This document shows positions 30,996 to 41,224 of a DNA stretch of 64,000 nt, piece by piece. The position numbers and the translations under genes were made by a program. Positions within the stretch are counted from its first letter, which is position 1, and every line of letters begins with the position of its first letter. Below the pieces are notes generated by a model, which saw nothing but the letters and a program-made list of their open reading frames with translations, was not told where the DNA came from and did no database searches. Source of the stretch: Escherichia phage dhaeg; sequence record MN850609.1; one strand, 5' to 3'.

Positions 30996-31031
30996 AGCCC
31001 TATCAAAACAAATGAGTGATTGGAGAATAAA

Positions 31032-31217
31032 ATGAAACGTTGTGAATTAATTAGAAATGTTACTGCACTGGCCGCCGTTACTGCTTTTGGCTTTAGTATG
31101 TTTGCAGGATTCATGTTGGATTTGCTTACAACTTCCGAGAATATAATCTCTTTAGTAGTGGCATTCTTAATTGGTTCAATCTCTTTCGTTATGGATAAAA
31201 TCTCTAAAGGTGAGTAA
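31032..31217 (+). CDS. small membrane protein
   Basis: 61 aa, two hydrophobic helices; start after ggagaataaa RBS. Confidence 0.5.
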   Translation: MKRCELIRNVTALAAVTAFGFSMFAGFMLDLLTTSENIISLVVAFLIGSISFVMDKISKGE

Positions 31218-31218
31218 A

Positions 31219-31599
31219 ATGTATAAAGTGTATGCGGATTATCAAGCAAATCCATCTGAAAAACCAGATTGCCAAATTGGGTGGGCGCATGACACCCTGC
31301 TTGAAGCGGTAAATGAAGCACAGAAATTAGGATATAGTTATGTAGATATTGTTCAACCGGGTGGAACAGTTATTACTCTTGAAGAATTCAAGAATATCAA
31401 AACAAACTTTTTGCTCTTTGCCGGTGATAACTATTATCCTCGTGGCGGTTATGCTGACTTAATCGCAAAGGCCGCGACTGAAGATGAACTGCGCGATATC
31501 ATTAAAGAAAACGAGAATAAGCCTTGTTACGGTTCCAATCGTTTTGACTGGTGGCAGATTGTCAATGCCAATACCCACACTATTGTAGACGAGGGTTAA
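31219..31599 (+). CDS. hypothetical protein
   Basis: 126 aa ORF, ATG after gtgagtaaa RBS-like sequence; tightly packed. Confidence 0.5.
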   Translation: MYKVYADYQANPSEKPDCQIGWAHDTLLEAVNEAQKLGYSYVDIVQPGGTVITLEEFKNIKTNFLLFAGDNYYPRGGYADLIAKAATEDELRDIIKENENKPCYGSNRFDWWQIVNANTHTIVDEG

Positions 31600-31884
31600 A
31601 TGTTATACGTTAAGGTTACTAATCCAGAGAATGGCTATAAATCCGATCAGGTTGCAGCCGAGTTGTTGATTCGAAATTACGGCAAAGATGCCGTGCTTGA
31701 TGTTCAACAGGTTAATATTGGCCGTAGTTCAAGCGATGTTAAACTCAAAGTTAACAGCCATCGCTATAATTCTGTTAACTTTACTTTTTATACCGCAACT
31801 GAAAATGGATTGGTCGAATACGACATCTTTAAAAACCCTTTGAAGATTGCTTCTATTAAACTTGACTATATTAATATGCTTTAA
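31600..31884 (+). CDS. hypothetical protein
   Basis: 94 aa ORF starting at the stop of the preceding gene. Confidence 0.5.
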   Translation: MLYVKVTNPENGYKSDQVAAELLIRNYGKDAVLDVQQVNIGRSSSDVKLKVNSHRYNSVNFTFYTATENGLVEYDIFKNPLKIASIKLDYINML

Positions 31885-31969
31885 GAATTATGTGATATTA
31901 TTACTCTATCATTAATACCCTCTATTACCAAAGGTTCTTCCCTCAAAGAGCCTTTCATAATAGAATTAA

Positions 31970-32043
31970 GGCCCTGTAGCTGGACGGTCAAGCGAGCGAC
32001 TCATAATCGCTGGATGGTGGTTCGATTCCACCCAGGGCCACCA
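31970..32043 (+). tRNA. tRNA with CAU anticodon (Met or lysidine-type Ile)
   Basis: Hand-folded cloverleaf: acceptor GGCCCUG/CAGGGCC, anticodon stem AGCGA/UCGCU with loop CUCAUAA, T-arm GGUGG-UUCGAUU-CCACC, encoded CCA. Confidence 0.75.
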
Positions 32044-32047
32044 ATTT

Positions 32048-32122
32048 GGATGTGTAGCTCAGTGGTAGAGCAGTTGACTGTTAATCAATTGGTCCATGGT
32101 TCGAATCCATGCATGTCCGCCA
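32048..32122 (+). tRNA. tRNA-Asn (GUU)
   Basis: Acceptor GGAUGUG/CAUGUCC (two G-U pairs), D-arm GCUC-AGUGGUA-GAGC, anticodon loop CUGUUAA, T-arm CAUGG-UUCGAAU-CCAUG, encoded CCA. Confidence 0.75.
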
Positions 32123-32126
32123 AATA

Positions 32127-32202
32127 CGAGGCATAGCTCAGAAGGAAGAGCAAGGACCTTCTAAGTCCTGGGTCGTAGGTTCGATCCCTACTGTCTCGAC
32201 CA
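32127..32202 (+). tRNA. tRNA-Arg (UCU)
   Basis: Acceptor CGAGGCA/UGUCUCG, D-arm GCUC-AGAAGGAA-GAGC, anticodon stem AGGAC/GUCCU with loop CUUCUAA, T-arm GUAGG-UUCGAUC-CCUAC, encoded CCA. Confidence 0.8.
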
Positions 32203-32372
32203 AACAAGAAACCGGGTCGCTACCGGTAAGTCGTCGGACTGAAGTTCCCTGAATAAGACCCGACTTTAAGGCGTACATGAGTTCCTCTTAAAGTCCCTTA
32301 TCTCACAGCTGAAACGGCGCACCGAACACTTGCCTAGCAGGTGGAACCCCGACAAGGTTACCCTAGGTTAAA
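32203..32372 (+). ncRNA. structured non-coding RNA region downstream of tRNA-Arg (candidate small stable RNA)
   Basis: About 170 nt without a convincing ORF between the last tRNA and a terminator; stems such as CGGGUC...GACCCG; T4 has small stable RNAs in this position. Confidence 0.35.
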
Positions 32373-32400
32373 GGCCCTTCCGAAAGGTTGGGCCTTTTTT
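32373..32400 (+). terminator. rho-independent terminator ending the tRNA/RNA transcription unit
   Basis: GGCCCuuCC-GAAA-GGuuGGGCC followed by TTTTTT. Confidence 0.6.
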
Positions 32401-32401
32401 G

Positions 32402-32409
32402 TATAAATA
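32402..32409 (+). promoter_or_regulatory. late promoter (TATAAATA)
   Basis: Exact TATAAATA 28 nt upstream of the ATG at 32438. Confidence 0.6.
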
Positions 32410-32437
32410 GATAAGTTAATTAACACAGGAAACAATA

Positions 32438-33061
32438 ATGAAAACTTACAATGAATTTTTGAACGAAAGCGTTCTGACTGAAGCCAGCGTGCGCATGACT
32501 AAAGATATGTGGCAAGCTGCTTATGATAAAATTTCCGGGACTAAAACCACTACCGAGTTCTTTAAAAACGTTTATGATATGTATGGTTTTGATACTAGTA
32601 ACCAGAAAGAATATTACAAAGCTTCCAAAGCTTTTAAAGATATCGTAGCCGGTGGCGCTACTAAACCTGCTAAACCAGCTAAAGCTCCTGTTGCTAAACC
32701 TGCAGCCCCAACCAAAGTTGCACCACCTAAACCTGCGGCAGCACCTAAAGCAGAGCCTGTAAAAGAAGCTCCTAAACCTAAAATCAAGTTCGACACCAGC
32801 ACTATTGTTAAAAAATATAACCAACTGGCTTCTTTGGTTTCTGAAATAGAATCCGAAACTAAACACCTTGTTCGTGAATTCAATGTTCTTCGTAACGGTC
32901 AACACATTAACAACCTGGACACACCAGACCTTTATCGTCTCTATCTGACGGTTGAAGGCCTTAAGTACACCCAGCCTATGCGCGAAGAAATTGACAACAA
33001 ACTTCGTCAAGCACGCCGACTGGCCGGTGACGCAGCTCAGTTCGAAAAGACTCGTAAATAA
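32438..33061 (+). CDS. internal-protein-like protein with capsid-targeting-sequence-like N-terminus and Pro/Ala/Lys-rich linker
   Basis: 207 aa; N-terminus MKTYNEFLNES...LTEA; low-complexity KPAKPAKAPVAKPAAPTKVAPPKPAAAPKAEP linker; late promoter upstream. Confidence 0.6.
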   Translation: MKTYNEFLNESVLTEASVRMTKDMWQAAYDKISGTKTTTEFFKNVYDMYGFDTSNQKEYYKASKAFKDIVAGGATKPAKPAKAPVAKPAAPTKVAPPKPAAAPKAEPVKEAPKPKIKFDTSTIVKKYNQLASLVSEIESETKHLVREFNVLRNGQHINNLDTPDLYRLYLTVEGLKYTQPMREEIDNKLRQARRLAGDAAQFEKTRK

Positions 33062-33064
33062 TGA

Positions 33065-33086
33065 AAGGAGACTTCGGTCTCCTTTT
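33065..33086 (+). terminator. rho-independent terminator
   Basis: GGAGAC-UUCG-GUCUCC followed by UUUU. Confidence 0.6.
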
Positions 33087-33120
33087 AGGGGGTTTAAACT
33101 AAAAATAATTTCACAAAGTT

Positions 33121-33149
33121 GTTTACACCTCCTTTAAACGTGATACTAT
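33121..33149 (+). promoter_or_regulatory. sigma70-type early promoter cassette
   Basis: GTTTACA-16-TACTAT plus conserved leader; -35-proximal CCTCCTT can pair with downstream AAGGAG RBS. Confidence 0.55.
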
Positions 33150-33184
33150 AGACCTATCAAAACAACAGAGTGAAGGAGAGTAAA

Positions 33185-33448
33185 ATGGATAATTATGGTG
33201 AATTGTTTAATTTCTTTATGAAATGCGTTCCTGAAGAATTTGGTGCTACTGTTAACGATATTAAGGTTATAGGTGATGACCATCCCATATTTGAAACCTA
33301 CGCAGTAATGGGTAATGACGATGGACAGTGGTATACCGTAAAGGTTGTGGTTAATATGTTTGCTGCCGAAGGGTACGTCAAATTGTCTACCAAAGTTTAT
33401 CACGATAACGATTTTGATGCGGAAGATTATTTCAATAATATGAAATAA
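33185..33448 (+). CDS. hypothetical protein
   Basis: 87 aa; ATG after ggagagtaaa RBS (ORF-track start at 33170 is GTG inside the leader). Confidence 0.5.
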   Translation: MDNYGELFNFFMKCVPEEFGATVNDIKVIGDDHPIFETYAVMGNDDGQWYTVKVVVNMFAAEGYVKLSTKVYHDNDFDAEDYFNNMK

Positions 33449-33450
33449 TT

Positions 33451-33486
33451 GTTTACACGGGCTCATGATTGAGATATTATGAGCCC
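33451..33486 (+). promoter_or_regulatory. early promoter with promoter-spanning stem-loop
   Basis: GTTTACA then inverted repeat GGGCTCAT...ATGAGCCC enclosing a TATTAT -10-like hexamer. Confidence 0.5.
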
Positions 33487-33505
33487 GTAATTTGAGGAGA
33501 GCATA

Positions 33506-33904
33506 ATGAATATCGAAGATAAAGAAATGCAAGAGTTGTATAATTCATTAACGCCTGAACAACAAAAAGCTGCCAAAGAATTAGAGAAAGCTCTTACTTT
33601 CAGCTTGGCAAAAACTGATTGGGCCGCCATGTATGAAGAAAAAAGGAGATCGGAAATTGAAGCTGTCGAGAGAAATGAATGGATTGTAGAAACCAAGATT
33701 TCTGATGGTGGTTGCTCTGTTGAGGTGTCAGCTGTGGTTAAAGGTACTCATGGTGAAAAATCACTAGGTTGGCATAATGAGGCAAACAAATATATTGTTC
33801 TCTCAACGTCAAAAACTTATGGTCAAAGGGTTCCTGTATCCAAAGCTATTATTAAGCAAGCTCAATGGGAAGCCAATGAAATTTGCCTAGCAAAAATGAA
33901 ATAA
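33506..33904 (+). CDS. hypothetical protein
   Basis: 132 aa ORF with GAGGAG RBS. Confidence 0.55.
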
Positions 33905-33907
33905 AAT

Positions 33908-33943
33908 GTTTACAACCCTCAGAGGACAGGGTATAATGTCCTC
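33908..33943 (+). promoter_or_regulatory. early promoter with promoter-spanning stem-loop (consensus TTTACA-17-TATAAT)
   Basis: gTTTACA ... TATAAT with stem AGGACA...TGTCCT flanking the -10. Confidence 0.6.
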
Positions 33944-33980
33944 ATGGATTACAAAATATCAACCGACTGAAGGAAATACT

Positions 33981-34574
33981 ATGAACACTTTAAAGAAAAT
34001 CGTTGAATTCATCCGTTCTAAACTGGGTACCGCAATGACTCAGAACCTGTCAATCGAAGACCAGTATACTAAAGCTGCTTCTACCCTGATTGATAAAATT
34101 ACTGAACTCCAGACTGCTCATGTTAAGTCTGTGAATGAAGAAAAACGTATTCGCGAGTTAGCGAATGAAAAAGACCAACTCGCCGCTTCAAAAGAGCGTG
34201 AAATTCGTAAACTGATTAAAGAAGGCGCCGATGTCCAGGTGCATGCTAAACTTGGCCTCCTTTATCGTCGTACAGCTAATCAACTTCGTAAGAAAGCAGA
34301 CGATTATATCGAAATGCGTAATGAAATTAAACTGAAGGTCAAGGAACTTGATGACTCTCGTCAAGAACTGGCTGTTAAGCTCGAGTACATCCGTGAAACT
34401 CGTAATATGGCTGCCCTTGGTATTGCTACTGCCGATGATGTGGTTGAAATCGCTGCACTGACTAAGATTGATATTGAAGATACCCTGCTGCGTGTAGAAA
34501 CGTTTAAAGGCCCACAAGTTGGAATGGATACGACTTCAGCCGATATCGAAGACTACATTAATTCACTTAAGTAA
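33981..34574 (+). CDS. coiled-coil protein (weak PspA/IM30-like impression, unverified)
   Basis: 197 aa, predominantly heptad-like charged helices; start at ATG 33981 after GAAGGAAA; ORF-track start 33906 reads through the promoter. Confidence 0.5.
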
Positions 34575-34581
34575 TATTACC

Positions 34582-34604
34582 GGGAGACTTCGGTCTCCCT
34601 ATTT
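34582..34604 (+). terminator. hairpin, possible weak terminator
   Basis: GGGAGAC-UUCG-GUCUCCC followed by UAUUU (poor U-tract). Confidence 0.35.
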
Positions 34605-34622
34605 GGAGGAGAGGAGAATATT

Positions 34623-35177
34623 ATGAGTTTATATGATAACCTTATATCAAATATTGATTGGTTTAAAAATAGTGGTCTTTCCCATGAAACCAATTCAGTT
34701 CTTTATAGAATTCGCCAAGACCTAGGCTATTCAAACGATTTCTTAAGCAGAACATCTAGCCGTGGCGATACTACCAAATTACCTTTTATTTTTGCTTTAG
34801 CTGAAGACCTTTCTTTTGAAGATGCTTTGGAAATTATTGACGTAAATCTGGCTATTCAACGAGTGGAATTCGCTGGACTACGTTATTCAGTATATTCTTT
34901 AAATGAGAGCAATGATTGCGTGCTTCTTAATATGGCAGACGATGATTACCATTTAGTATGCTATGTGGCTTTAGAAAATGGTGATGTATTTGGAATGGTC
35001 GACCGCCGCCCAACTTATACTGATATTAAAAATTATGATAAAGATGAGCTTCTTGATTTGGCGGCTGAGTACACATTAGAGAGTCGTAAACGGAAACGTA
35101 AGCTTAATCGTTTTATTGCTGAATGTCGTGAATATGCTAAAGGGGTTCAAAATGCGAACGTTATATCTGCCAAGTAA
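34623..35177 (+). CDS. hypothetical protein with C-terminal K-x-N-x-L-x-x-F-I-x-E-C-R module
   Basis: 184 aa; ends ...KRKLNRFIAECREYAKG... Confidence 0.5.
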   Translation: MSLYDNLISNIDWFKNSGLSHETNSVLYRIRQDLGYSNDFLSRTSSRGDTTKLPFIFALAEDLSFEDALEIIDVNLAIQRVEFAGLRYSVYSLNESNDCVLLNMADDDYHLVCYVALENGDVFGMVDRRPTYTDIKNYDKDELLDLAAEYTLESRKRKRKLNRFIAECREYAKGVQNANVISAK

Positions 35178-35511
35178 ACCAGAAAAATTTGTATACGCAG
35201 ACAAGATTGATAAAGACCTTATGCCTCCATTTGGGGCTCTGTCCATGTGCATCGTTGGAATTATAATGATGGTTGTTTGTGGAGATATGAATATCATCAG
35301 TGTTGGAGTCGCCTGGACGCTAGTAATTACAGCTCCTTTTATTACAGTCCTGTGTATGGTATTGATAAATGTGTGGCATCAAAATCATATGAATAAAGGA
35401 TATCGTGGGCGAGTTAAAGAGTGGGAACAAAAATGTGTTTCCCTACAAGAAGAGCACAAAATTAAATGTGCCGAAGAATTTATTAAGGAGGTTCGTAATG
35501 GAACGGCCTAA
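35152..35511 (+). CDS. membrane protein with C-terminal F-I-K-E tail
   Basis: Start at ATG 35152 after AAGGGG; two hydrophobic helices; ends ...EEFIKEVRNGTA. Confidence 0.45.
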   Translation: MRTLYLPSKPEKFVYADKIDKDLMPPFGALSMCIVGIIMMVVCGDMNIISVGVAWTLVITAPFITVLCMVLINVWHQNHMNKGYRGRVKEWEQKCVSLQEEHKIKCAEEFIKEVRNGTA

Positions 35512-35851
35512 TCTTGCATCACATGTTTATCAATTGGCTGAATATGATATTGGTGCCAATTTATTATTAGGGATTGCCACCGGTATGCTTGGCGGCTTGG
35601 TTGGTCTGGTAATGACCACGGTTATGGCTGCAATCGAGGGAGTCATGCCCATTGAGATGGGTTTCTATATGATAATCGCTCCGGCTGTCGTGGCTTATTT
35701 TATCCCTCTAGTGTATGATATTTGCCATACAAATGCTTTGAATGCTCCCATCCGTAAGAGATATGCTTTAGAGATGGCTAATTATAATGAGTATGTAAAA
35801 CAAACCAAACGTAATGACCTTGAAACCTTTATTAAGGAATGTAAATCATGA
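35499..35851 (+). CDS. membrane protein with C-terminal F-I-K-E-C tail
   Basis: Start at ATG 35499 after AAGGAGG; hydrophobic helices; ends ...RNDLETFIKECKS. Confidence 0.45.
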
Positions 35852-36138
35852 ATAAAATTGAAATTGAAATCCCTGAATACAACGACGAGAAATCTGCAGA
35901 AAAAGCTATCTATGCTCTTCTGAATAAAGTAGATATCATCGAATCCAAATGTGAAGCTATTGCCGATAAGTACGGTATTCAATTCGGAACAGGTGATTAT
36001 GGCTCAGGACGTACATACTATCCGGTCGGTTATGAATGCTCCCAGTGGTTTAAAGATGAAATTGAAAACAATGGCGGTGAAGTTGAAAATGGCGTCGTTA
36101 CAGTTGGTGCCTGGGTCTCCTCTTCGGCAATGTGCTAA
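35848..36138 (+). CDS. small protein, paralog 1 of tandem family with C-terminal WVSSSxxC tail
   Basis: 96 aa; ends ...GAWVSSSAMC; ATG overlaps upstream stop. Confidence 0.6.
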   Translation: MNKIEIEIPEYNDEKSAEKAIYALLNKVDIIESKCEAIADKYGIQFGTGDYGSGRTYYPVGYECSQWFKDEIENNGGEVENGVVTVGAWVSSSAMC

Positions 36139-36147
36139 GGAAAAGCT

Positions 36148-36429
36148 ATGATGAATGATAATCATAACCATCCAGAGCTTCTGGCCGCAGTAAAAGAAAT
36201 TCATGAAGCTATTCGTCGTGCCGAGGAAATTGCAGATAAATATGAGACTCATTTTAATATATACCCTGCTCGCGGTATGGGCGGTGACTATTATTCTCCT
36301 GGCGCCTTGAAAGCTGACCTTGCCCATTGGGAAGAAGATGGTCATCCTGAATGGGCTATTGTTAATACTCATGACTATACAACTGACCTCGCAACTGGCG
36401 GTTGGGTGTCCTCTTCTTCTGAATGTTAA
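36148..36429 (+). CDS. small protein, paralog 2 of tandem family with C-terminal WVSSSxxC tail
   Basis: 93 aa; ends ...GGWVSSSSEC; AAGGAAA RBS. Confidence 0.6.
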   Translation: MMNDNHNHPELLAAVKEIHEAIRRAEEIADKYETHFNIYPARGMGGDYYSPGALKADLAHWEEDGHPEWAIVNTHDYTTDLATGGWVSSSSEC

Positions 36430-36438
36430 GGAAATATT

Positions 36439-36636
36439 ATGTCTCGTGAATTAGATTGTGCAATCCGAACTGCCGCGGCGGCAATTGAAAACGTTATTCA
36501 AATTTGTAAAGAAGAACGCGAAGAAGCTGATATCTATATTGATGGTGCTCGTGACTTAGAACGACATATAACGCTTTATAACGGTTGTATTACTATTAGT
36601 GGTACCTCTTGGGTGTCCTCTTCTTACGAATGCTAA
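36439..36636 (+). CDS. small protein, paralog 3 of tandem family with C-terminal WVSSSxxC tail
   Basis: 65 aa; ends ...TSWVSSSYEC; AAGGAAA RBS. Confidence 0.6.
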   Translation: MSRELDCAIRTAAAAIENVIQICKEEREEADIYIDGARDLERHITLYNGCITISGTSWVSSSYEC

Positions 36637-36645
36637 GGTAATAAA

Positions 36646-36858
36646 ATGACTATTGATGAAATTGAAAAACAAATCCGTGAATTAGTACGTAAAGGCCAGT
36701 CCGTGGCTGATGAAACAGGTGAAGAATTTTATGTTTCTGGACGCGGTCAATACATTTCTCCAAAGAATCCAGAATATGATGATTACGAATGGGTCCGTGA
36801 TGACTACGGTATCCCAGAAGGTGAAGGTTTCTGGTTTAGCTCCTCTATGTCTTGCTAA
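36646..36858 (+). CDS. small protein, paralog 4 of tandem family with C-terminal WFSSSxxC tail
   Basis: 70 aa; ends ...GFWFSSSMSC; AAGG RBS. Confidence 0.6.
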   Translation: MTIDEIEKQIRELVRKGQSVADETGEEFYVSGRGQYISPKNPEYDDYEWVRDDYGIPEGEGFWFSSSMSC

Positions 36859-36868
36859 GGAATAAAAA

Positions 36869-37093
36869 ATGTCTAATATTAATGAATTGGAAAAAGCAGC
36901 TCTTGAACTGGCTGCGCTGTATAAGAAAGTAAAAGATATGGCTTCTGCCCAGGATTTTGGTGTTGAGCTAGATGATTACGACGGTGAAGTTCGTCTTGAA
37001 GATTGGCTGAATAGCTCTTGTTATGGTGAAGAAGCTGGTCGTACCTTCGTTGCTCGCTCCGATGGTAAAATCTGGTACCCGAGCTCATGCTAA
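36869..37093 (+). CDS. small protein, paralog 5 of tandem family (degenerate W-Y-P-S-S-C tail)
   Basis: 74 aa; ends ...GKIWYPSSC; AAGGAA RBS. Confidence 0.55.
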   Translation: MSNINELEKAALELAALYKKVKDMASAQDFGVELDDYDGEVRLEDWLNSSCYGEEAGRTFVARSDGKIWYPSSC

Positions 37094-37314
37094 AATTAAA
37101 GAAAAGATACATTCGTAAAATAAATGGTCTTCGCGATTATGCCAAAGGTTGGCCGTTAAGTATTATTATGGCTGATAGACACCCACGTTATAATACCGAG
37201 TTGACCTATTATAAAAAGTATGATTCATATTGTCGGTCTAAAGCCGGTCGTTTAGATGGTTCTTATGAAGAATACTTTGGTAAAAAACCTACTCGTATTT
37301 CGTTAGGAAAATAA
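37087..37314 (+). CDS. hypothetical basic protein
   Basis: 75 aa, Lys/Arg/Tyr-rich; overlaps upstream stop. Confidence 0.45.
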   Translation: MLKLKKRYIRKINGLRDYAKGWPLSIIMADRHPRYNTELTYYKKYDSYCRSKAGRLDGSYEEYFGKKPTRISLGK

Positions 37315-37344
37315 TTTAGCCACACGGATGTGGTAGGAGGACTT

Positions 37345-37674
37345 ATGCACAAAGATTCAGTATTCAAATATCTTTTGAAAACAGATAAAGAATTCTATAT
37401 GAATGGGCAAGCTTTCTTGTTCGTCCGTGGTAAACGTGAGATGTTTTATAAATGCGACCTCTCAATGCACCATCATATGTATCATACCCACGGCGAGCCT
37501 ATACTAGGGTTCTCTGGTGACGAGACTAGACACATAGCTATGTACTATGACCATTTTAAGCTCAATGATTGTGGTGACAACGCTTTGGTCTGGAACCCAT
37601 CTTGGAGACGTTGGGATACAGTAGACAGCGATAAATTATTTTTAGAATATTGCAGAAGTGATGTACAACTCTAA
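37345..37674 (+). CDS. hypothetical His-rich protein
   Basis: 109 aa; ATG after TAGGAGGA RBS (ORF-track start 37330 is GTG); His cluster HHHMYHTHG. Confidence 0.5.
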   Translation: MHKDSVFKYLLKTDKEFYMNGQAFLFVRGKREMFYKCDLSMHHHMYHTHGEPILGFSGDETRHIAMYYDHFKLNDCGDNALVWNPSWRRWDTVDSDKLFLEYCRSDVQL

Positions 37675-37718
37675 AAACTTGTGTTACTATTACCTTACAC
37701 AAACATGAGGGGAACATT

Positions 37719-37958
37719 ATGTGGTATTATTCTCCACTGTCTGATAAGTCTGATGAGCCGGTACGCATTAGTCGTGCCAAGTTTAAAAAGATTTATGGCT
37801 TTGCCTATAAGAAGTCTGATTACGGTGTTCGTTTTGAAGATGCCCACTGTATCAACGACCCTTATGCAGAAGAAATCTCTAATGAGATAATTCCTATCAT
37901 TAAGAATAATTCTGATGATATGTGGGAATTGCATAACGATTACGTTGCTGAAATTTAA
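37719..37958 (+). CDS. hypothetical protein
   Basis: 79 aa ORF, GAGGGGAA RBS. Confidence 0.5.
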   Translation: MWYYSPLSDKSDEPVRISRAKFKKIYGFAYKKSDYGVRFEDAHCINDPYAEEISNEIIPIIKNNSDDMWELHNDYVAEI

Positions 37959-37979
37959 GTTTACTCTGAGGAAAATATT

Positions 37980-38147
37980 ATGTATAATGTTCTTATTGTT
38001 TTTGTTACTCACCCACAAGGTGGCGTAAGGCAGAATACTTCCCAAGTGGTCCAATTTTCTTCACTAGAGGCTGCTAATCTAGCCGCAACGCGTATTGAAG
38101 CAAAAAAATCTGAACTGGGTAAATATGAAGTAACTCGTCTTTATTAA
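37980..38147 (+). CDS. hypothetical small protein (55 aa)
   Basis: ORF below the 60-aa track cutoff; GAGGAAAATATT RBS; fills an otherwise empty gap. Confidence 0.4.
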   Translation: MYNVLIVFVTHPQGGVRQNTSQVVQFSSLEAANLAATRIEAKKSELGKYEVTRLY

Positions 38148-38160
38148 TGAGGAAAATATT

Positions 38161-39120
38161 ATGATGCTAGTTATTGGTTCTCGTGCACTGCACCACGCTG
38201 GTCTGATTGAAAGTAAGTATATCGAAAATTCTGATTGGGATTTTATTGCCGACCAGGGGTCATGGAATAATTTTAAAGCACAGATGTTTGGCGCCCATGT
38301 ACACGTAGACAACCCTGACGTCCAGGCTTTTAAATGCATGCACAACGGTAAAGAAACCTATTTTGAAGCTTATATCGTCCGCGCCTTGACTAACGTACGT
38401 GAAATTACCGGCGAACTCCAAGATGAGGATTTCACCTCAAGCTACCGCCTTCTGAATTATGCTAAAACACATATTAAGAAAGATCGGATGACGGGTTTCT
38501 ATTGGGCCACGCCTGATATCTGTCTGGCCATCAAAATGAGCCATCGTTATTTGAAGAACAACCCTTTCTTTTTGAAGACGATGTCCCACATCAAATACCT
38601 TCGTAATAAAGGTGTAACCTTGAATGAAGAGCTCCAAGAAATCATGCTGCAACGTCAGAAAGAAACGTTGAGCTATTCTCATCCTAAATTAGATGTAAAC
38701 AAATCATCGTTCTTTAATGATACCATCTATACATTAGACCACGACTCTATTCATGAAGCTGTGGCATTAGCCGGACGCCCAGCGTATACCTTTTATATGA
38801 AAGATGGTTCTGAAGTCATGACCTCTCGTGAGAAGTTTGAAGCTTTGCCTGAAGCTATTAAACTGGCAGGGGTTTATGAAGAAGCATGTGTACTTGCTCT
38901 AGAGCGTTCGCAGGTTCCTAATGACTTTAATATCCCAGCAGCCACAAGTTTCTATATGGCTCTTGAGAAAGTGTGCACCTCAATCACTTCAGGTTGGTTC
39001 CGTGAGTATGCCTGGGAAAACTACCAAGCTGTAGTGAATATGTATAGGACCCTAGGTGAAAGTGACTACATCAACCGGTTTAAGCGTAATCAACATTTAA
39101 TTCGTCCTTTCGAAAAATAA
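38161..39120 (+). CDS. nucleotidyltransferase-fold protein (Pol-beta superfamily-like)
   Basis: 319 aa; N-terminal h-G-S-x(n)-D-x-D pattern (IGSRALHHAGL...SDWDF) typical of minimal nucleotidyltransferases; helical C-terminal domain. Confidence 0.55.
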   Translation: MMLVIGSRALHHAGLIESKYIENSDWDFIADQGSWNNFKAQMFGAHVHVDNPDVQAFKCMHNGKETYFEAYIVRALTNVREITGELQDEDFTSSYRLLNYAKTHIKKDRMTGFYWATPDICLAIKMSHRYLKNNPFFLKTMSHIKYLRNKGVTLNEELQEIMLQRQKETLSYSHPKLDVNKSSFFNDTIYTLDHDSIHEAVALAGRPAYTFYMKDGSEVMTSREKFEALPEAIKLAGVYEEACVLALERSQVPNDFNIPAATSFYMALEKVCTSITSGWFREYAWENYQAVVNMYRTLGESDYINRFKRNQHLIRPFEK

Positions 39121-39132
39121 TTGCATAAAACA

Positions 39133-39166
39133 GTGTACAAGGTCTATAGGTGTGATACTATAGACC
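39133..39166 (+). promoter_or_regulatory. early promoter cassette with promoter-spanning stem
   Basis: TGTACA-16-TACTAT; inverted repeat GGTCTATAG...CTATAGACC spans the -10. Confidence 0.5.
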
Positions 39167-39198
39167 TATCAAAACAACAGAGTGAAATGGAGAATAAA

Positions 39199-39411
39199 AT
39201 GAAACTTTCTAACCAAGCAATCAACATGTTAAACGAAGTTCGTGCAGCTGGTGCTAAATGTCTGATGGTTAACACTCGTGACGGTGACCTTCGTCAAGCA
39301 TTTGGTGAATTGAAATCTGCTGACCTGGTTAAATGTTCGGTTGGTATCGGTAATGCACTTCGTGTATCCTTATCCCCTAAAGGTAAAATGTACTTTTTCA
39401 ACAAAAAGTAA
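39199..39411 (+). CDS. hypothetical protein
   Basis: 70 aa; ATG after conserved ggagaataaa RBS. Confidence 0.5.
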   Translation: MKLSNQAINMLNEVRAAGAKCLMVNTRDGDLRQAFGELKSADLVKCSVGIGNALRVSLSPKGKMYFFNKK

Positions 39412-39440
39412 TATACATTCTCGTAAGATATGTTATTATA
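39411..39440 (+). promoter_or_regulatory. possible early promoter (weak -35)
   Basis: TATTAT -10-like hexamer followed by conserved agacctatcaaaacaaatgagtga leader shared with other cassettes. Confidence 0.4.
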
Positions 39441-39476
39441 GACCTATCAAAACAAATGAGTGAATTGGAGAATAAA

Positions 39477-39707
39477 ATGAAAGCCATCATGAGTGTTTTA
39501 GCCCTGAGCTTGGTTGCTTTAGCTGCAGTTCCTTTTATTGTTGATGTTGGAGACGAAACACAAGTTGAATCCTCAATCGTTGTCAGTAAAGATGGTACAT
39601 CGGTTAAGATCGGTAATAATCTCCATATGAATCCTAATGGTACTTTAGGTGTTCAGCTCGGTAACACATGTGTAAGCACAACTGGTAAAGTTAATACTTG
39701 CTTCTGA
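39477..39707 (+). CDS. small secreted protein (signal peptide)
   Basis: 76 aa; N-terminal MKAIMSVLALSLVALAAVPF hydrophobic signal-like segment. Confidence 0.5.
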   Translation: MKAIMSVLALSLVALAAVPFIVDVGDETQVESSIVVSKDGTSVKIGNNLHMNPNGTLGVQLGNTCVSTTGKVNTCF

Positions 39708-39717
39708 GGAAAATATT

Positions 39718-40404
39718 ATGAACAGCCCAAAAACTTTTAATTCTCAAGCTCGTGCAGTAGGCGGTTTCGCTGGTAAAATTTCTAACGATAAAATCAAAAA
39801 CGAAACTATGTTCTTCAACAGCTCATTGGCTTTCGCTTTTGATAATGGTGGCCCTATTACTCGTAGCTTTATAATGAGTCTGCCGGATGATTGGAACACC
39901 GACCAGGTTGTATTTGATTCTCGGGTTCATATGCTGATGCCTGGTTGGTATCCTGCTATCCCAGGTTATCACCATGATGATGTACCACGCCCGGATATTC
40001 CGGTTGGTCAACACTTTATTACTGCAGGGCAACCTGATTATGATAACCCTCGATACCATTCTGAACATATTCTTGGTCTTGTTAACGCTGATGTGTGTCC
40101 TACTTATTTTGCAACCGGAACTGCACAATTTAGCCAGATTCCTGATGGCGAACTTATCTATCGCCAGTGGCATAAAGAAGTTCTGGAAAAAATTGAGTCT
40201 AATGAATTAACCAAGTGGGATGCTCCTGACCGTACATTGCTCCAGTTTGATTGGCAGACATGGCATACAGGTTCCCGTGCAGTAAGTAACGGATGGCGCT
40301 GGTTTGGTCGTGTGTCTCGTAATACCGACCGTGTTAAAAAGATTACAAATGAAATCCGCGTTAATGCTCAAGTATATCTGGAATTCCCTATGGAGGGCTG
40401 GTAA
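39718..40404 (+). CDS. hypothetical protein
   Basis: 228 aa ORF, GAGGAAAATATT RBS. Confidence 0.55.
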   Translation: MNSPKTFNSQARAVGGFAGKISNDKIKNETMFFNSSLAFAFDNGGPITRSFIMSLPDDWNTDQVVFDSRVHMLMPGWYPAIPGYHHDDVPRPDIPVGQHFITAGQPDYDNPRYHSEHILGLVNADVCPTYFATGTAQFSQIPDGELIYRQWHKEVLEKIESNELTKWDAPDRTLLQFDWQTWHTGSRAVSNGWRWFGRVSRNTDRVKKITNEIRVNAQVYLEFPMEGW

Positions 40405-40991
40405 TGGCCCTTTATGAACCTGGTTGCATGGGTGTTGATGTAAACTTCATCCGTCGGTCTGAAAATGCCGGAATCATTATCCCAAATGGTGAGAATATGA
40501 TTATTAAAAAGTCCTGGCGAAATATTGATGATGCTGATGAAGGAATTTCAGCCAGTACAGTAGATTGGTCAGGATGTACTGCTGAAATGAAACAACTTTT
40601 AATTGAGGAATATAAAATGGGCTATATCGTAAATGGTTGGCAACCGGAACCCCATAAAGAACAGACGCCAGACCCATTGATTTGTTATAGCAAAAAATAC
40701 GGCTTCCGTACATGGAGTGATGAATACGACAAATTGGTGAGTTCTAGGTTCTATGTTTGGATGGGGATATTATTTTTCCCACTCCTAGGGTTTTTCCTGA
40801 CAACGGATAATGACCTGCCTATTACGCTATTTGCTTCAGCGATGTCTGCGGCTATCTTAGGACTTATCGCATCATTTTTATGGACTGCAGTTATTGAAGT
40901 ACCTTTTCGTATTTCTAAAGTTAAAAAGGTATATGACGATATCACTAAGAAAAATACATTAAACTCTTTTATTGAGGAATGCCGTAAATGA
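40404..40991 (+). CDS. membrane protein with C-terminal F-I-E-E-C-R-K tail
   Basis: 195 aa; two hydrophobic helices near C-terminus; ends ...KKNTLNSFIEECRK. Confidence 0.55.
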   Translation: MALYEPGCMGVDVNFIRRSENAGIIIPNGENMIIKKSWRNIDDADEGISASTVDWSGCTAEMKQLLIEEYKMGYIVNGWQPEPHKEQTPDPLICYSKKYGFRTWSDEYDKLVSSRFYVWMGILFFPLLGFFLTTDNDLPITLFASAMSAAILGLIASFLWTAVIEVPFRISKVKKVYDDITKKNTLNSFIEECRK

Positions 40992-41224
40992 GTATTGCGA
41001 TTTATATTAAATCTGAGTCATGCGATTCTTATCTGTATTCCTATGACACTGGAACATCAGAAGAGAAAATCAAAGAAGATTTAGAAAGCGACTTGGATAT
41101 GTTCCGACCTATTTCTGATTATATGGTCCAAATATCTGATAGTGAAAGTCCGTCATTAGAAAATAGACTTGAAATTTTAATGAGCGACATTTTTAACCAA
41201 TCATGGAAACGAGACGATGAGTAA
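40988..41224 (+). CDS. hypothetical acidic protein
   Basis: 78 aa; ATGA overlap with upstream gene. Confidence 0.5.
   Translation: MSIAIYIKSESCDSYLYSYDTGTSEEKIKEDLESDLDMFRPISDYMVQISDSESPSLENRLEILMSDIFNQSWKRDDE

Follow-up and report, generated by a model that had tools for sequence, protein, structure and literature searches.

Escherichia phage dhaeg (sequence record MN850609.1) carries, in the stretch of 64,000 nucleotides (nt) that was analysed and that is referred to below as the window, a tandem array of five small open reading frames (ORF1 to ORF5), the products of which all end in a short Ser-containing tail closed by Cys. Further downstream on the same strand lies the gene for a protein of 319 amino acids (aa), p319, with which such tail-bearing genes are associated in other phages. 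Five consecutive same-strand ORFs of 96, 93, 65, 70 and 74 aa had been described in the original prediction, which was made from the sequence alone, and their coordinates and tails were confirmed in every case (Table 1). By its sequence the window belongs to a JS98-like T4-type phage of the genus Dhakavirus: positions 35400-37400 share 96% identity with dhabil and CLB_P2, both Escherichia phages, and 92-94% with JS98, JS10 and IME08. The array is situated inside a hyperplastic accessory region between e.3 and e.2. Genome comparison with T4 revealed that e.2, e.3 and e.4 are directly adjacent there and that the array is absent.

Table 1. Position of the tail ORFs, the p319 gene and associated features in the window
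Feature	Position	Strand	Basis
Candidate MotA-type middle promoter, ATATGCTTTA-N12-TATAAT	35761..35788	+	pattern match
ORF1, 96 aa, tail AWVSSSAMC (36112-36135)	35848..36138	+	phrog_899, family HMM
ORF2, 93 aa, tail GWVSSSSEC (36403-36426)	36148..36429	+	family HMM
ORF3, 65 aa, tail SWVSSSYEC (36610-36633)	36439..36636	+	phrog_4882
ORF4, 70 aa, tail FWFSSSMSC (36832-36855)	36646..36858	+	phrog_899, family HMM
ORF5, 74 aa, tail KIWYPSSC (37073-37090) and internal motif (37004-37021)	36869..37093	+	phrog_899
Four small lineage-specific ORFs (75, 114, 79 and 55 aa) in the interval between array and enzyme gene	37087..38147	+	outside the conserved module
p319, candidate partner of 319 aa, DUF7277 + DUF7275	38161..39120	+	Pfam, predicted nucleotidyltransferase fold

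The five ORFs are real genes and their tail is selected at the amino-acid level. In a six-frame scan of the window the tail motif followed by a stop codon was found at the 5 ORF ends and nowhere else, whereas 400 shuffles gave 0.10-0.12 such sites on average. The ratio of non-synonymous to synonymous substitution rates (dN/dS), determined on orthologs in 12 related genomes, amounted to 0.11, 0.26, 0.05, 0.13 and 0.06 for ORF1 to ORF5, which is similar to the values of neighbouring genes of accepted coding status. That the copies use different Ser codon families, as had been noted, was verified in the window. In a set of 159 distinct homologous sites that encode the tail, every one of the six Ser codons occurs at each conserved Ser position (AGY in 20-26%), Cys is encoded by TGC at 100 and by TGT at 59 sites, and all three stop codons are found. 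The proposal that the tail is kept as protein and not as a nucleotide repeat is borne out by this use of six Ser codons and by dN/dS values of 0.05-0.26. A search of 31000-41000 against Rfam returned three tRNAs (31970-32199) and nothing else. The recurring TGC/TGT-TAA-GGA junctions between the genes could point to an RNA or DNA element, or the ORFs might have arisen by chance. Given the switches between TCN and AGY codons, dN/dS well under 1 and the lack of any Rfam match apart from the three tRNAs, we regard such an origin of the conservation as practically excluded. RNA element, nucleotide repeat and chance ORFs are refuted because of the Ser codon variety, the dN/dS values and the negative Rfam result.

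The layout of the ribosome-binding sites was only partly as predicted. The next ATG follows 9-10 nt past each stop, but the GGA, which had been placed about 10 nt after the stop, directly abuts it (TAAGGAA). GGA or GGT is found directly after the stop codon of every ORF, and the gene that follows ORF5 begins within the last codons of ORF5 (ATGCTAA). A scan for sigma-70 promoters and terminators gave no excess over the shuffle expectation.

All five proteins are acidic, with isoelectric points (pI) of 4.2-4.8 and net charges of -6 to -11. ORF1 (pI 4.3, net charge -9) is of the 'GDYGSGRTYYP' type and ORF2 (pI 4.8, net charge -11) of the 'YPARGMGGDYYSPG' type, ORF3 represents a short type that consists of a helix, a hairpin and the tail, and ORF4 has a pI of 4.2 and a net charge of -9. 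The AlphaFold2 (AF2) model of ORF1 has a predicted local distance difference test score (pLDDT) of 91.4 and combines a long helix (14-42) with a small beta region and a short helix; the last strand includes W89, and the S-S-x-x segment adopts a terminal turn. Neither a signal peptide nor a membrane or hydrophobic segment that would suggest export was detected in the five ORFs. A significant Pfam match was absent for all five, as was an NCBIfam match for ORF1 and a PADLOC match for ORF1, ORF2 and ORF4.

Searching with ORF1 by tblastn yielded 387 phage records, the hosts of which include Escherichia, Aeromonas, Enterobacter, Klebsiella, Serratia, Citrobacter and Yersinia. When 1.84 billion representatives were searched exhaustively with a profile, 133 clusters (at 50% identity) reached an E-value of 1e-3 or better. 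The tail family was defined as small acidic proteins with the motif G-x-W-x-[SAPNT]-S-[ST]-x-x-C (or W-x-x-S-S-C) at most one residue from the C terminus, and this definition covers all five ORFs. A total of 168 family proteins was retrieved, 154 of which have an aligned tail of 8 residues, and 156 match any of three tail patterns. Nearly all tails read G-x-W-x-S-S-S-x-x-C-COOH. With positions counted from the Trp, the Trp itself, the Ser at +3 and the Cys are present in 154/154 members, whereas position +2 is Ser in 118/154 (otherwise A, P, N, T or G) and position +4 is Ser in 149/154 and Thr in 5/154; Gly occupies -2 in 112/154. About 146 of the 154 end with the Cys, and in about 8 one more residue follows it. 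Family members have a median length of 87 aa and a median net charge of -8.

The tail was found to be kept with other stop codons and other downstream sequences, on bodies that belong to PHROGs 899, 4882 or 23943 or to none and that range from 65 to 172 aa, the long tail-bearing proteins (110-172 aa) containing no known domain. To judge from these alignments the tail behaves like a portable tag on varied bodies. A search of the Protein Data Bank (PDB) sequences with the tail-family profile gave no match, nor is there a solved structural neighbour. Two long matches, P0049 and P0121, that looked like fusions of the tail family with other domains turned out to be spurious repeat proteins. The failure of the original prediction to recognise the family from T4 or from any characterised family was justified, as the array is absent from T4 and matches no Pfam entry. 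The T4-like phages, to which a search had been directed, do contain the family, but it is not confined to them. No paper was found on the tail family or on the p319 family, and both are annotated only as hypothetical or as a domain of unknown function. The ORF1 homolog of the RB69 reference genome (L004 6989-7295) is broken into two ORFs, ORF139c and ORF138c, and has the tail AWVSSPALC, in which a Ser is replaced by Pro; this is probably a pseudogene, and the enzyme gene, ORF134c, is intact.

The pairwise identity of the five ORFs is 24-29%, with seven invariant columns (M1, A39, D70, W89, S92, S93 and C96), four of which belong to the tail. A hidden Markov model (HMM) of the family, built on 156 members, detects ORF1 (E = 7e-25), ORF2 (1.5e-24) and ORF4 (1.7e-19), and gives E-values of 0.085 and 9 for ORF3 and ORF5. 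When the ORF3 and ORF5 groups were compared with the core family by hhalign, the tail alone aligned (for ORF3 the last 13 residues). In PHROGs, ORF1 (E = 3e-23), ORF4 (1e-14), ORF5 (4e-10) and ORF2 are assigned to phrog_899 and ORF3 to phrog_4882 (2e-36), neither of which has an assigned function. The sequences indicate that ORF1, ORF2 and ORF4 are clear paralogs, sharing the core body pattern A-D-x-x-G-x-x-F ... G-x-G-x-x-Y-Y-P with HMM E-values below 1e-18. The loose A-D-x-Y ... G-x-Y-Y core that had been ascribed to all copies holds for these three, but ORF3 and ORF5 align by the tail alone. Likewise, duplication and diversification of five paralogs is supported for ORF1, ORF2 and ORF4 (E = 1e-19 to 1e-25) but not, beyond the tail, for ORF3 and ORF5. 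The architecture of the latter two resembles that of the others in having an N-terminal helix, a short beta region and the tail.

Homologs of ORF3 are RB69 ORF136c and phiR1-RT g126. ORF5 contains a double motif, an internal WLNSSC in EDWLNSSCYGEE and the terminal WYPSSC, in which the Cys comes directly after Ser-Ser. The consensus of this subfamily is ...[FL]-x-D-W-x-S-S-S-C-Y-G-E-G ... W-x-x-S-S-C, and the double motif is kept in phiAS4, 44RR2.8t, CC2, phiR1-RT g128, ESCO13 and PspYZU05-like loci (examples are L005 9261-9473, L006 9248-9463, L008 9283-9507 and L009 3413-3628). In a PspYZU05-like locus, L039, the sole tail gene is of the double-motif type.

A nearby gene with a nucleotidyltransferase (NTase) fold had been pointed out in the original prediction. 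This is the p319 gene, the genetic linkage of which to tail-bearing genes recurs in phages that are not related to each other. Between e.3 and e.2, the genomes of RB69, SP18 and dhabil contain tail genes followed by a gene for 318-319 aa, of which RB69 ORF134c corresponds to p319 of the window. A p319 homolog is situated downstream of a tail-family gene in SP18, dhabil, RB69, phiAS4, 44RR2.8t, phiR1-RT and CC2, and T4 is devoid of both. The flanking genes vary and include nrdD in the Aeromonas phages phiAS4 and 44RR2.8t, rnlA in CC2 and nudE in Yersinia phage phiR1-RT. Distant T4-like phages exhibit the same local order of an ORF1-type gene, a gene for 70-75 aa and a gene for about 300 aa. In phiAS4, 44RR2.8t and CC2 the middle gene is of the ORF5 type (...D-W-L-S-S-S-C-Y-G-E-G ... 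W-x-x-S-S-C); in phiR1-RT a short gene of the ORF3 type, g126, occupies its place, with g128, which is of the ORF5 type, located upstream of g127. p319 and tail ORFs were also found together in ESCO13 (Phapecoctavirus), phiPsa347 (Otagovirus), Stenotrophomonas phage Ps15 (Menderavirus) and Acinetobacter phage Maestro, where the tails include NWHPSSLSC, VWHSSSC, VWISSSSMC, GWNASSQSC, DWDSSSMYC, GWLASSQSC and EWHPSSQDC.

The association was quantified in 80 IMG/VR loci that were retrieved by alignment with p319 at identities from 96% down to 40% and that include jumbo-phage contigs of 355-371 kb. One to six same-strand tail ORFs were present just upstream of the p319 homolog in 75 of the 80; the family HMM detects 69 of the 80. 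Five loci have no tail ORF, and 22, 23, 7, 10, 12 and 1 have one, two, three, four, five and six, respectively. The gap between tail ORF and enzyme gene has a median of 377 nt and a minimum of 25 nt, and in other lineages than that of the window the last tail gene ends 25-100 nt ahead of the enzyme gene. The gene nearest to the enzyme gene is of the ORF5 type in 17 of the 75 loci. For the reverse direction, a degenerate DNA pattern for W-[hydrophobic]-S-S-S-x-x-C-TAA retrieved 76 stretches, 31 with family genes and 45 chance matches. All 16 family-gene loci with at least 2.5 kb of downstream sequence contained a p319 homolog. The chance matches were without p319 or family gene, except for one (L140) that has a p319 homolog next to it and is probably a divergent member of the tail family. 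The association recurs in at least eight lineages with different neighbours. From this linkage in both directions the tail genes and the p319 gene appear to constitute an undescribed two-part phage module, of which no earlier report was found. When 100,044 prokaryotic species genomes were searched with a DNA pattern for the peptide KVCTSITSGWFRE, which is invariant in p319, no more than 2 contigs were matched, and the module is for this reason considered essentially phage-restricted. Both contigs are from metagenome-assembled genomes; in the only one with upstream sequence (L171) three tail ORFs directly precede the p319 gene.

The p319 protein consists of DUF7277 (residues 2-101, E = 2e-78) and DUF7275 (residues 120-305, E = 2e-27) and belongs to phrog_2141. 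By tblastn 733 phage records were obtained, and the family comprises more than 2,000 clusters at 90% identity, all named hypothetical. The two domains were the sole Pfam matches in 34 of 34 p319 homologs, and DUF1814/AbiEii was not matched. PDB sequence and profile searches, NCBIfam and PADLOC were all without a match for p319. Its AF2 model (pLDDT 91.4, predicted template modelling score 0.86) was compared with solved structures by Foldseek, which returned as top PDB entries 5uvd (NTase-like), 8an4 and 8an5 (MenT1), mimivirus poly(A) polymerase, Cid1 and African swine fever virus (ASFV) PolX, with 4wse, 4fhy and 5xm9 among the entries; probabilities reached 1.0, E-values were about 1e-3 and template modelling (TM) scores 0.29-0.51. 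The model shows the signature of the Pol-beta type, with G6-S7 at a strand-helix junction, D25-x-D27 on strand 26-31 and E/D69 on strand 64-73, and these residues are essentially invariant in 86 homologs. The N-terminal domain is thus predicted to be a Pol-beta-type NTase fold with intact catalytic residues. The C-terminal domain is helical and contains, in the same homologs, the invariant residues H128, H174, H194, D195, H198, E240, E241 and E248, in addition to K125, K139, R165, K270, R281 and C272. The His, Asp and Glu residues look like a putative HD-type metal site; DUF7275 has no HD match in Pfam and no match to PDB sequences. One p319 homolog, that of Acinetobacter phage phi1_092060 (L093 2162-3115), has been labelled 'DefenseFinder protein' by an automated pipeline, and the label could not be traced to a named system.

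For three tail proteins of phiR1-RT, experimental data have been published. Gp126 is of the ORF3 type, Gp127 of the ORF1 type and Gp128 of the ORF5 type. These were not among the 78 virion proteins identified by liquid chromatography-tandem mass spectrometry (LC-MS/MS), were left as proteins of unknown function without HHpred hits, and were not toxic in E. coli, the relative numbers of colony-forming units being 0.94, 0.69 and 1.08 at a cut-off of 0.4 (PMC6893735). The five ORFs of the window are taken to encode small, strongly acidic, soluble, non-virion proteins. Upstream of ORF1 in the window, at a distance of about 60 nt and within the coding sequence of the 3' end of the e.3-like gene, lies the MotA-type site of Table 1, which is kept in 9 of 12 close relatives. 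Its pattern, [AT]3-TGCTT-N12-14-TAnnnT, occurs 6 times on the + strand of the window (31120, 31874, 35761, 43405, 54720 and 56653) and once on the - strand, 1.24 matches being expected per strand. The site may represent a middle promoter. A position in the e.x region of T4 we take to mean early or middle expression, and the tail genes are probably expressed before late infection.

In the reading that we prefer, and to which we grant slightly less than an even chance, the tail genes and p319 would be the two halves of a phage-restricted module in which p319 reads and most likely modifies the tail, an inference from gene association and residue conservation only. The enzyme would recognise the tail as a common handle and would transfer a nucleotide or a nucleotide-derived group onto the hydroxyls of the invariant tail Ser residues, perhaps with involvement of the Cys thiol. 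The diversified bodies, one to six per phage and drawn from several sequence families, could direct the tagged proteins to different targets, probably for host takeover or counter-defence. Covalent nucleotidylation is favoured because invariant Ser, Ser/Thr and Cys stand beside a Trp anchor and p319 has an intact site for nucleotidyl transfer; invariant nucleophiles of this kind are typical of acceptor sites. A fuller version, in which a dedicated NTase nucleotidylates the tails, the HD-like domain could make the reaction reversible, and the products serve as nucleotide-bearing decoys or carriers against host targets or defence, is doubtful in all its parts taken together. The common partner that the original prediction had suggested for the tail has thereby gained strong, if indirect, support and a candidate, with linkage in 75/80 and 16/16 loci, but of the kinds of partner named there, a packaging receptor is unlikely in view of the virion LC-MS/MS, and an export receptor finds no export signal.

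Several observations weigh against the preferred reading. In the window itself the enzyme gene starts 1,068 nt past the stop of ORF5, so that about 1.07 kb with four unrelated ORFs separates the array from p319; these ORFs are confined to close relatives, apart from the 79-aa ORF, which has a further match in RB69 ORF135c. Five of the 80 p319 loci lack a nearby tail ORF. In these (L073, L074, L076, L084 and L036) none was found within about 3 kb upstream; the enzyme gene of L076 is split, and in the CC31-like L036 an ORF-free gap of about 1 kb is present where tail genes would be expected. These loci might represent modules in decay, or else the enzyme might work there without tail proteins. 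The co-occurrence counts, moreover, are not phylogenetically independent. The structural neighbours of p319 (MenT1 and the poly(A)/poly(U) polymerases) act on RNA ends and not on proteins, and the matches are weak. Finally, in the AF2 model the Trp and the first Ser of the tail belong to the final beta-strand, after which comes a short helix, which suggests that the tail may belong to the fold instead of being a free tag.

That the closest p319 structures act on RNA is one reason why two other explanations are still credible. p319 might be a MenT/AbiEii-like NTase that acts on host RNA, for instance tRNA 3' ends, while the tail proteins are unmodified inhibitors, chaperones or specificity subunits that dock by their tail. 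This regulator- or antitoxin-like arrangement, which we rate as rather unlikely, agrees with the presence of the MenT1 toxin, the MenA1 complex (8an4, 8an5) and RNA-tailing polymerases among the best structural matches, with adjacent small same-strand genes as in toxin-antitoxin pairs, and with the harmlessness of the tail proteins alone. However, 1 to 6 copies with diverse bodies per enzyme gene are unlike 1:1 antitoxins, invariant Ser, Ser and Cys are unlike a typical binding surface, and a Pfam match to DUF1814/AbiEii is missing. Alternatively, the proteins might act singly as independent effectors, for example as a nucleic-acid mimic or as an inhibitor of a host or defence protein, with the tail as a structural, metal-binding or oligomerization cap and with the adjacency to p319 as a matter of shared island and timing. 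Their strong negative charge (family median -8, window ORFs -6 to -11), the building of the start of the tail into the fold by AF2 and the location of the array in the hyperplastic region between e.3 and e.2 are all in line with such a role, yet the linkage survives transfer across unrelated lineages and neighbourhoods with same-strand order and short gaps. Besides, the occurrence of the tail on bodies without detectable similarity is hard to explain by a fold-stabilizing element, and we consider independent effectors unlikely.

Two further explanations concern the fate of the tail. A tandem set of small paralogs beside one enzyme, and a Ser at +4 that is nearly invariant, replaced solely by Thr and three residues ahead of the C-terminal Cys, are reminiscent of ribosomally synthesized and post-translationally modified peptides (RiPPs). 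The S-x-x-C-COOH tails may resemble aminovinyl-cysteine (AviCys) precursors. Here p319 would activate the tail Ser, which is eliminated and to which the Cys adds (lanthionine), or the terminal Cys would be decarboxylated as in AviCys. This is very unlikely, as the conserved and variable parts are reversed with respect to leader-core precursors, the proteins are confidently folded (AF2, ORF1), the double-motif type has its Cys straight after Ser-Ser, about 8 of the 154 members extend one residue past the Cys, and no RiPP enzyme family was found by Pfam among the scanned neighbours: LanB, LanM, LanKC, YcaO, radical-SAM and HFCD flavoprotein had no match in 35116-35851, the array, 37087-37314 and nine genes (33906-35177 and 37330-40404). 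Even less probable is a sorting tag by which the proteins would reach the capsid or be exported. It would fit diversified small proteins with a common terminal tag, like the T4 internal proteins of the same region, one of which may be encoded at 32438-33061. Against it stand the absence of Gp126-128 from the phiR1-RT virion list (PMC6893735) and the lack in the five ORFs of a signal peptide, a hydrophobic segment or an N-terminal targeting sequence such as that of the MKTYxEF type at 32438; the linkage to the enzyme would also be unexplained.

The best precedent for the proposed chemistry is HepT/MntA, in which a Pol-beta-fold NTase is reported to (poly)adenylylate covalently, on a side-chain hydroxyl, a small partner that is encoded next to it (PMC7641770). 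The adjoining NTase and partner genes are the point of likeness. The partner there, however, is a HEPN RNase toxin, the residue modified is a Tyr, and the pair is 1:1 and bacterial, whereas here the acidic partners, with their Ser/Cys motif at the C terminus, number one to six and the module is restricted to phages; in the five ORFs and the scanned neighbours Pfam gave no match to HEPN or MNT. MenT acts on tRNA. MenT/AbiEii with MenA/AbiEi resembles the present module in its NTase head, helical C-terminal part and small neighbouring genes, and 8an4/8an5 belong to the solved structures that come nearest to p319 (Foldseek E = 1.6e-3, probability 1.0), but a sequence match to DUF1814/AbiEii is lacking, TM scores are 0.33-0.51, and the partners here are unrelated and have a unique tail.

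GlnD combines NTase and HD phosphohydrolase domains and reversibly nucleotidylates the small protein PII. p319 is comparable in that an NTase domain is followed by a helical domain with an invariant H...H...HD...H...EE...E, but it is without ACT domains or a Pfam HD match, and the acceptor of GlnD is a loop Tyr and not a C-terminal tail. CitX and MdcG are enzymes of the NTase superfamily that attach a nucleotide-derived prosthetic group to a Ser of the acidic CitD or MdcC of about 10 kDa. No sequence match to their families was obtained, the modified Ser is internal in them, their setting is metabolic and not viral, and paralog arrays are absent. As no sequence match to these families exists, HepT/MntA, GlnD and CitX/MdcG would serve as analogies and not as families to which the module belongs. 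RiPP arrays (prochlorosin-type; AviCys) also have tandem small paralogs, one enzyme and a Ser...Cys at the C terminus, but here the tail is conserved, the body varies and the proteins are folded and 65-172 aa long. The T4 internal proteins, finally, are diversified small proteins from the same hyperplastic region in which shared machinery reads a short tag at one terminus. This tag is at the N terminus and is removed by cleavage, and the proteins are packaged, whereas the tail proteins are absent from the phiR1-RT virion list. The module was rated as lying outside the known kinds of system, with the reservation that its mechanism is deduced from associated genes and conserved residues only.

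The module spans T4-like phages of enterobacteria, Aeromonas and Acinetobacter as well as Phapecoctavirus, Otagovirus, Menderavirus and jumbo-phage contigs. If true, the protein-tagging reading would mean that both a pathway of post-translational modification and a class of viral effectors are new. The extreme conservation of a C-terminal Ser/Ser/Cys motif on otherwise unrelated bodies, beside an NTase-fold protein in which the residues for nucleotidyl transfer are intact, makes new protein chemistry a directly testable hypothesis, and it would offer a new set of host-takeover or counter-defence effectors in therapeutically used phage genera. Should the modification idea fail, an unexplained and strongly selected two-gene association still stands.

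Some features of the surroundings were noted as well. The ORF at 37087-37314, found in close relatives only, encodes a very basic protein of 75 aa (pI 10, net charge +12), and the ATGCTAA overlap of its start with the last codons of ORF5 suggests translational coupling. Upstream of the array, 35116-35511 and 35405-35851 (annotated start about 35498) encode membrane proteins homologous to T4 e.4 and e.3, which are distant paralogs (phrog_2604 and phrog_2330 cross-hit). Both carry the C-terminal sequence [ET]-F-I-K-E, in agreement with the second shared tail that had been reported for nearby membrane proteins. Further upstream, just after the three tRNA genes, 32438-33061 encodes a protein of 207 aa with the N terminus MKTYNEFLNES, which is like the capsid-targeting sequence of T4 internal proteins, and with a middle part rich in Pro, Ala and Lys; from its sequence it is probably an internal head protein. 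A gene for nicotinamide phosphoribosyltransferase is located 3-4 kb from the module in the unrelated phages 44RR2.8t of Aeromonas (L006 3733-5187) and Ps15 of Stenotrophomonas (L011 1-675), which may be a coincidence of accessory-gene clustering.

Downstream of p319 the adjacent small ORFs 39121-39411 and 39456-39707 have a segment S-E-[ML]-E-N-K-M-K in common, which in the dhabil copy extends to 59% identity across 27 aa, and the second of these is hydrophobic at its N terminus. They are followed by a gene for a protein of 228 aa (39718-40404; phrog_1843, no Pfam match) that is 79% identical to gp180 of Aeromonas phage CC2, whereas its 319-aa neighbour is just 46% identical to the CC2 homolog. 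This suggests recent horizontal transfer of, or very strong constraint on, the 228-aa protein, which carries an H-H-D-D ... W-H-T-G pattern.

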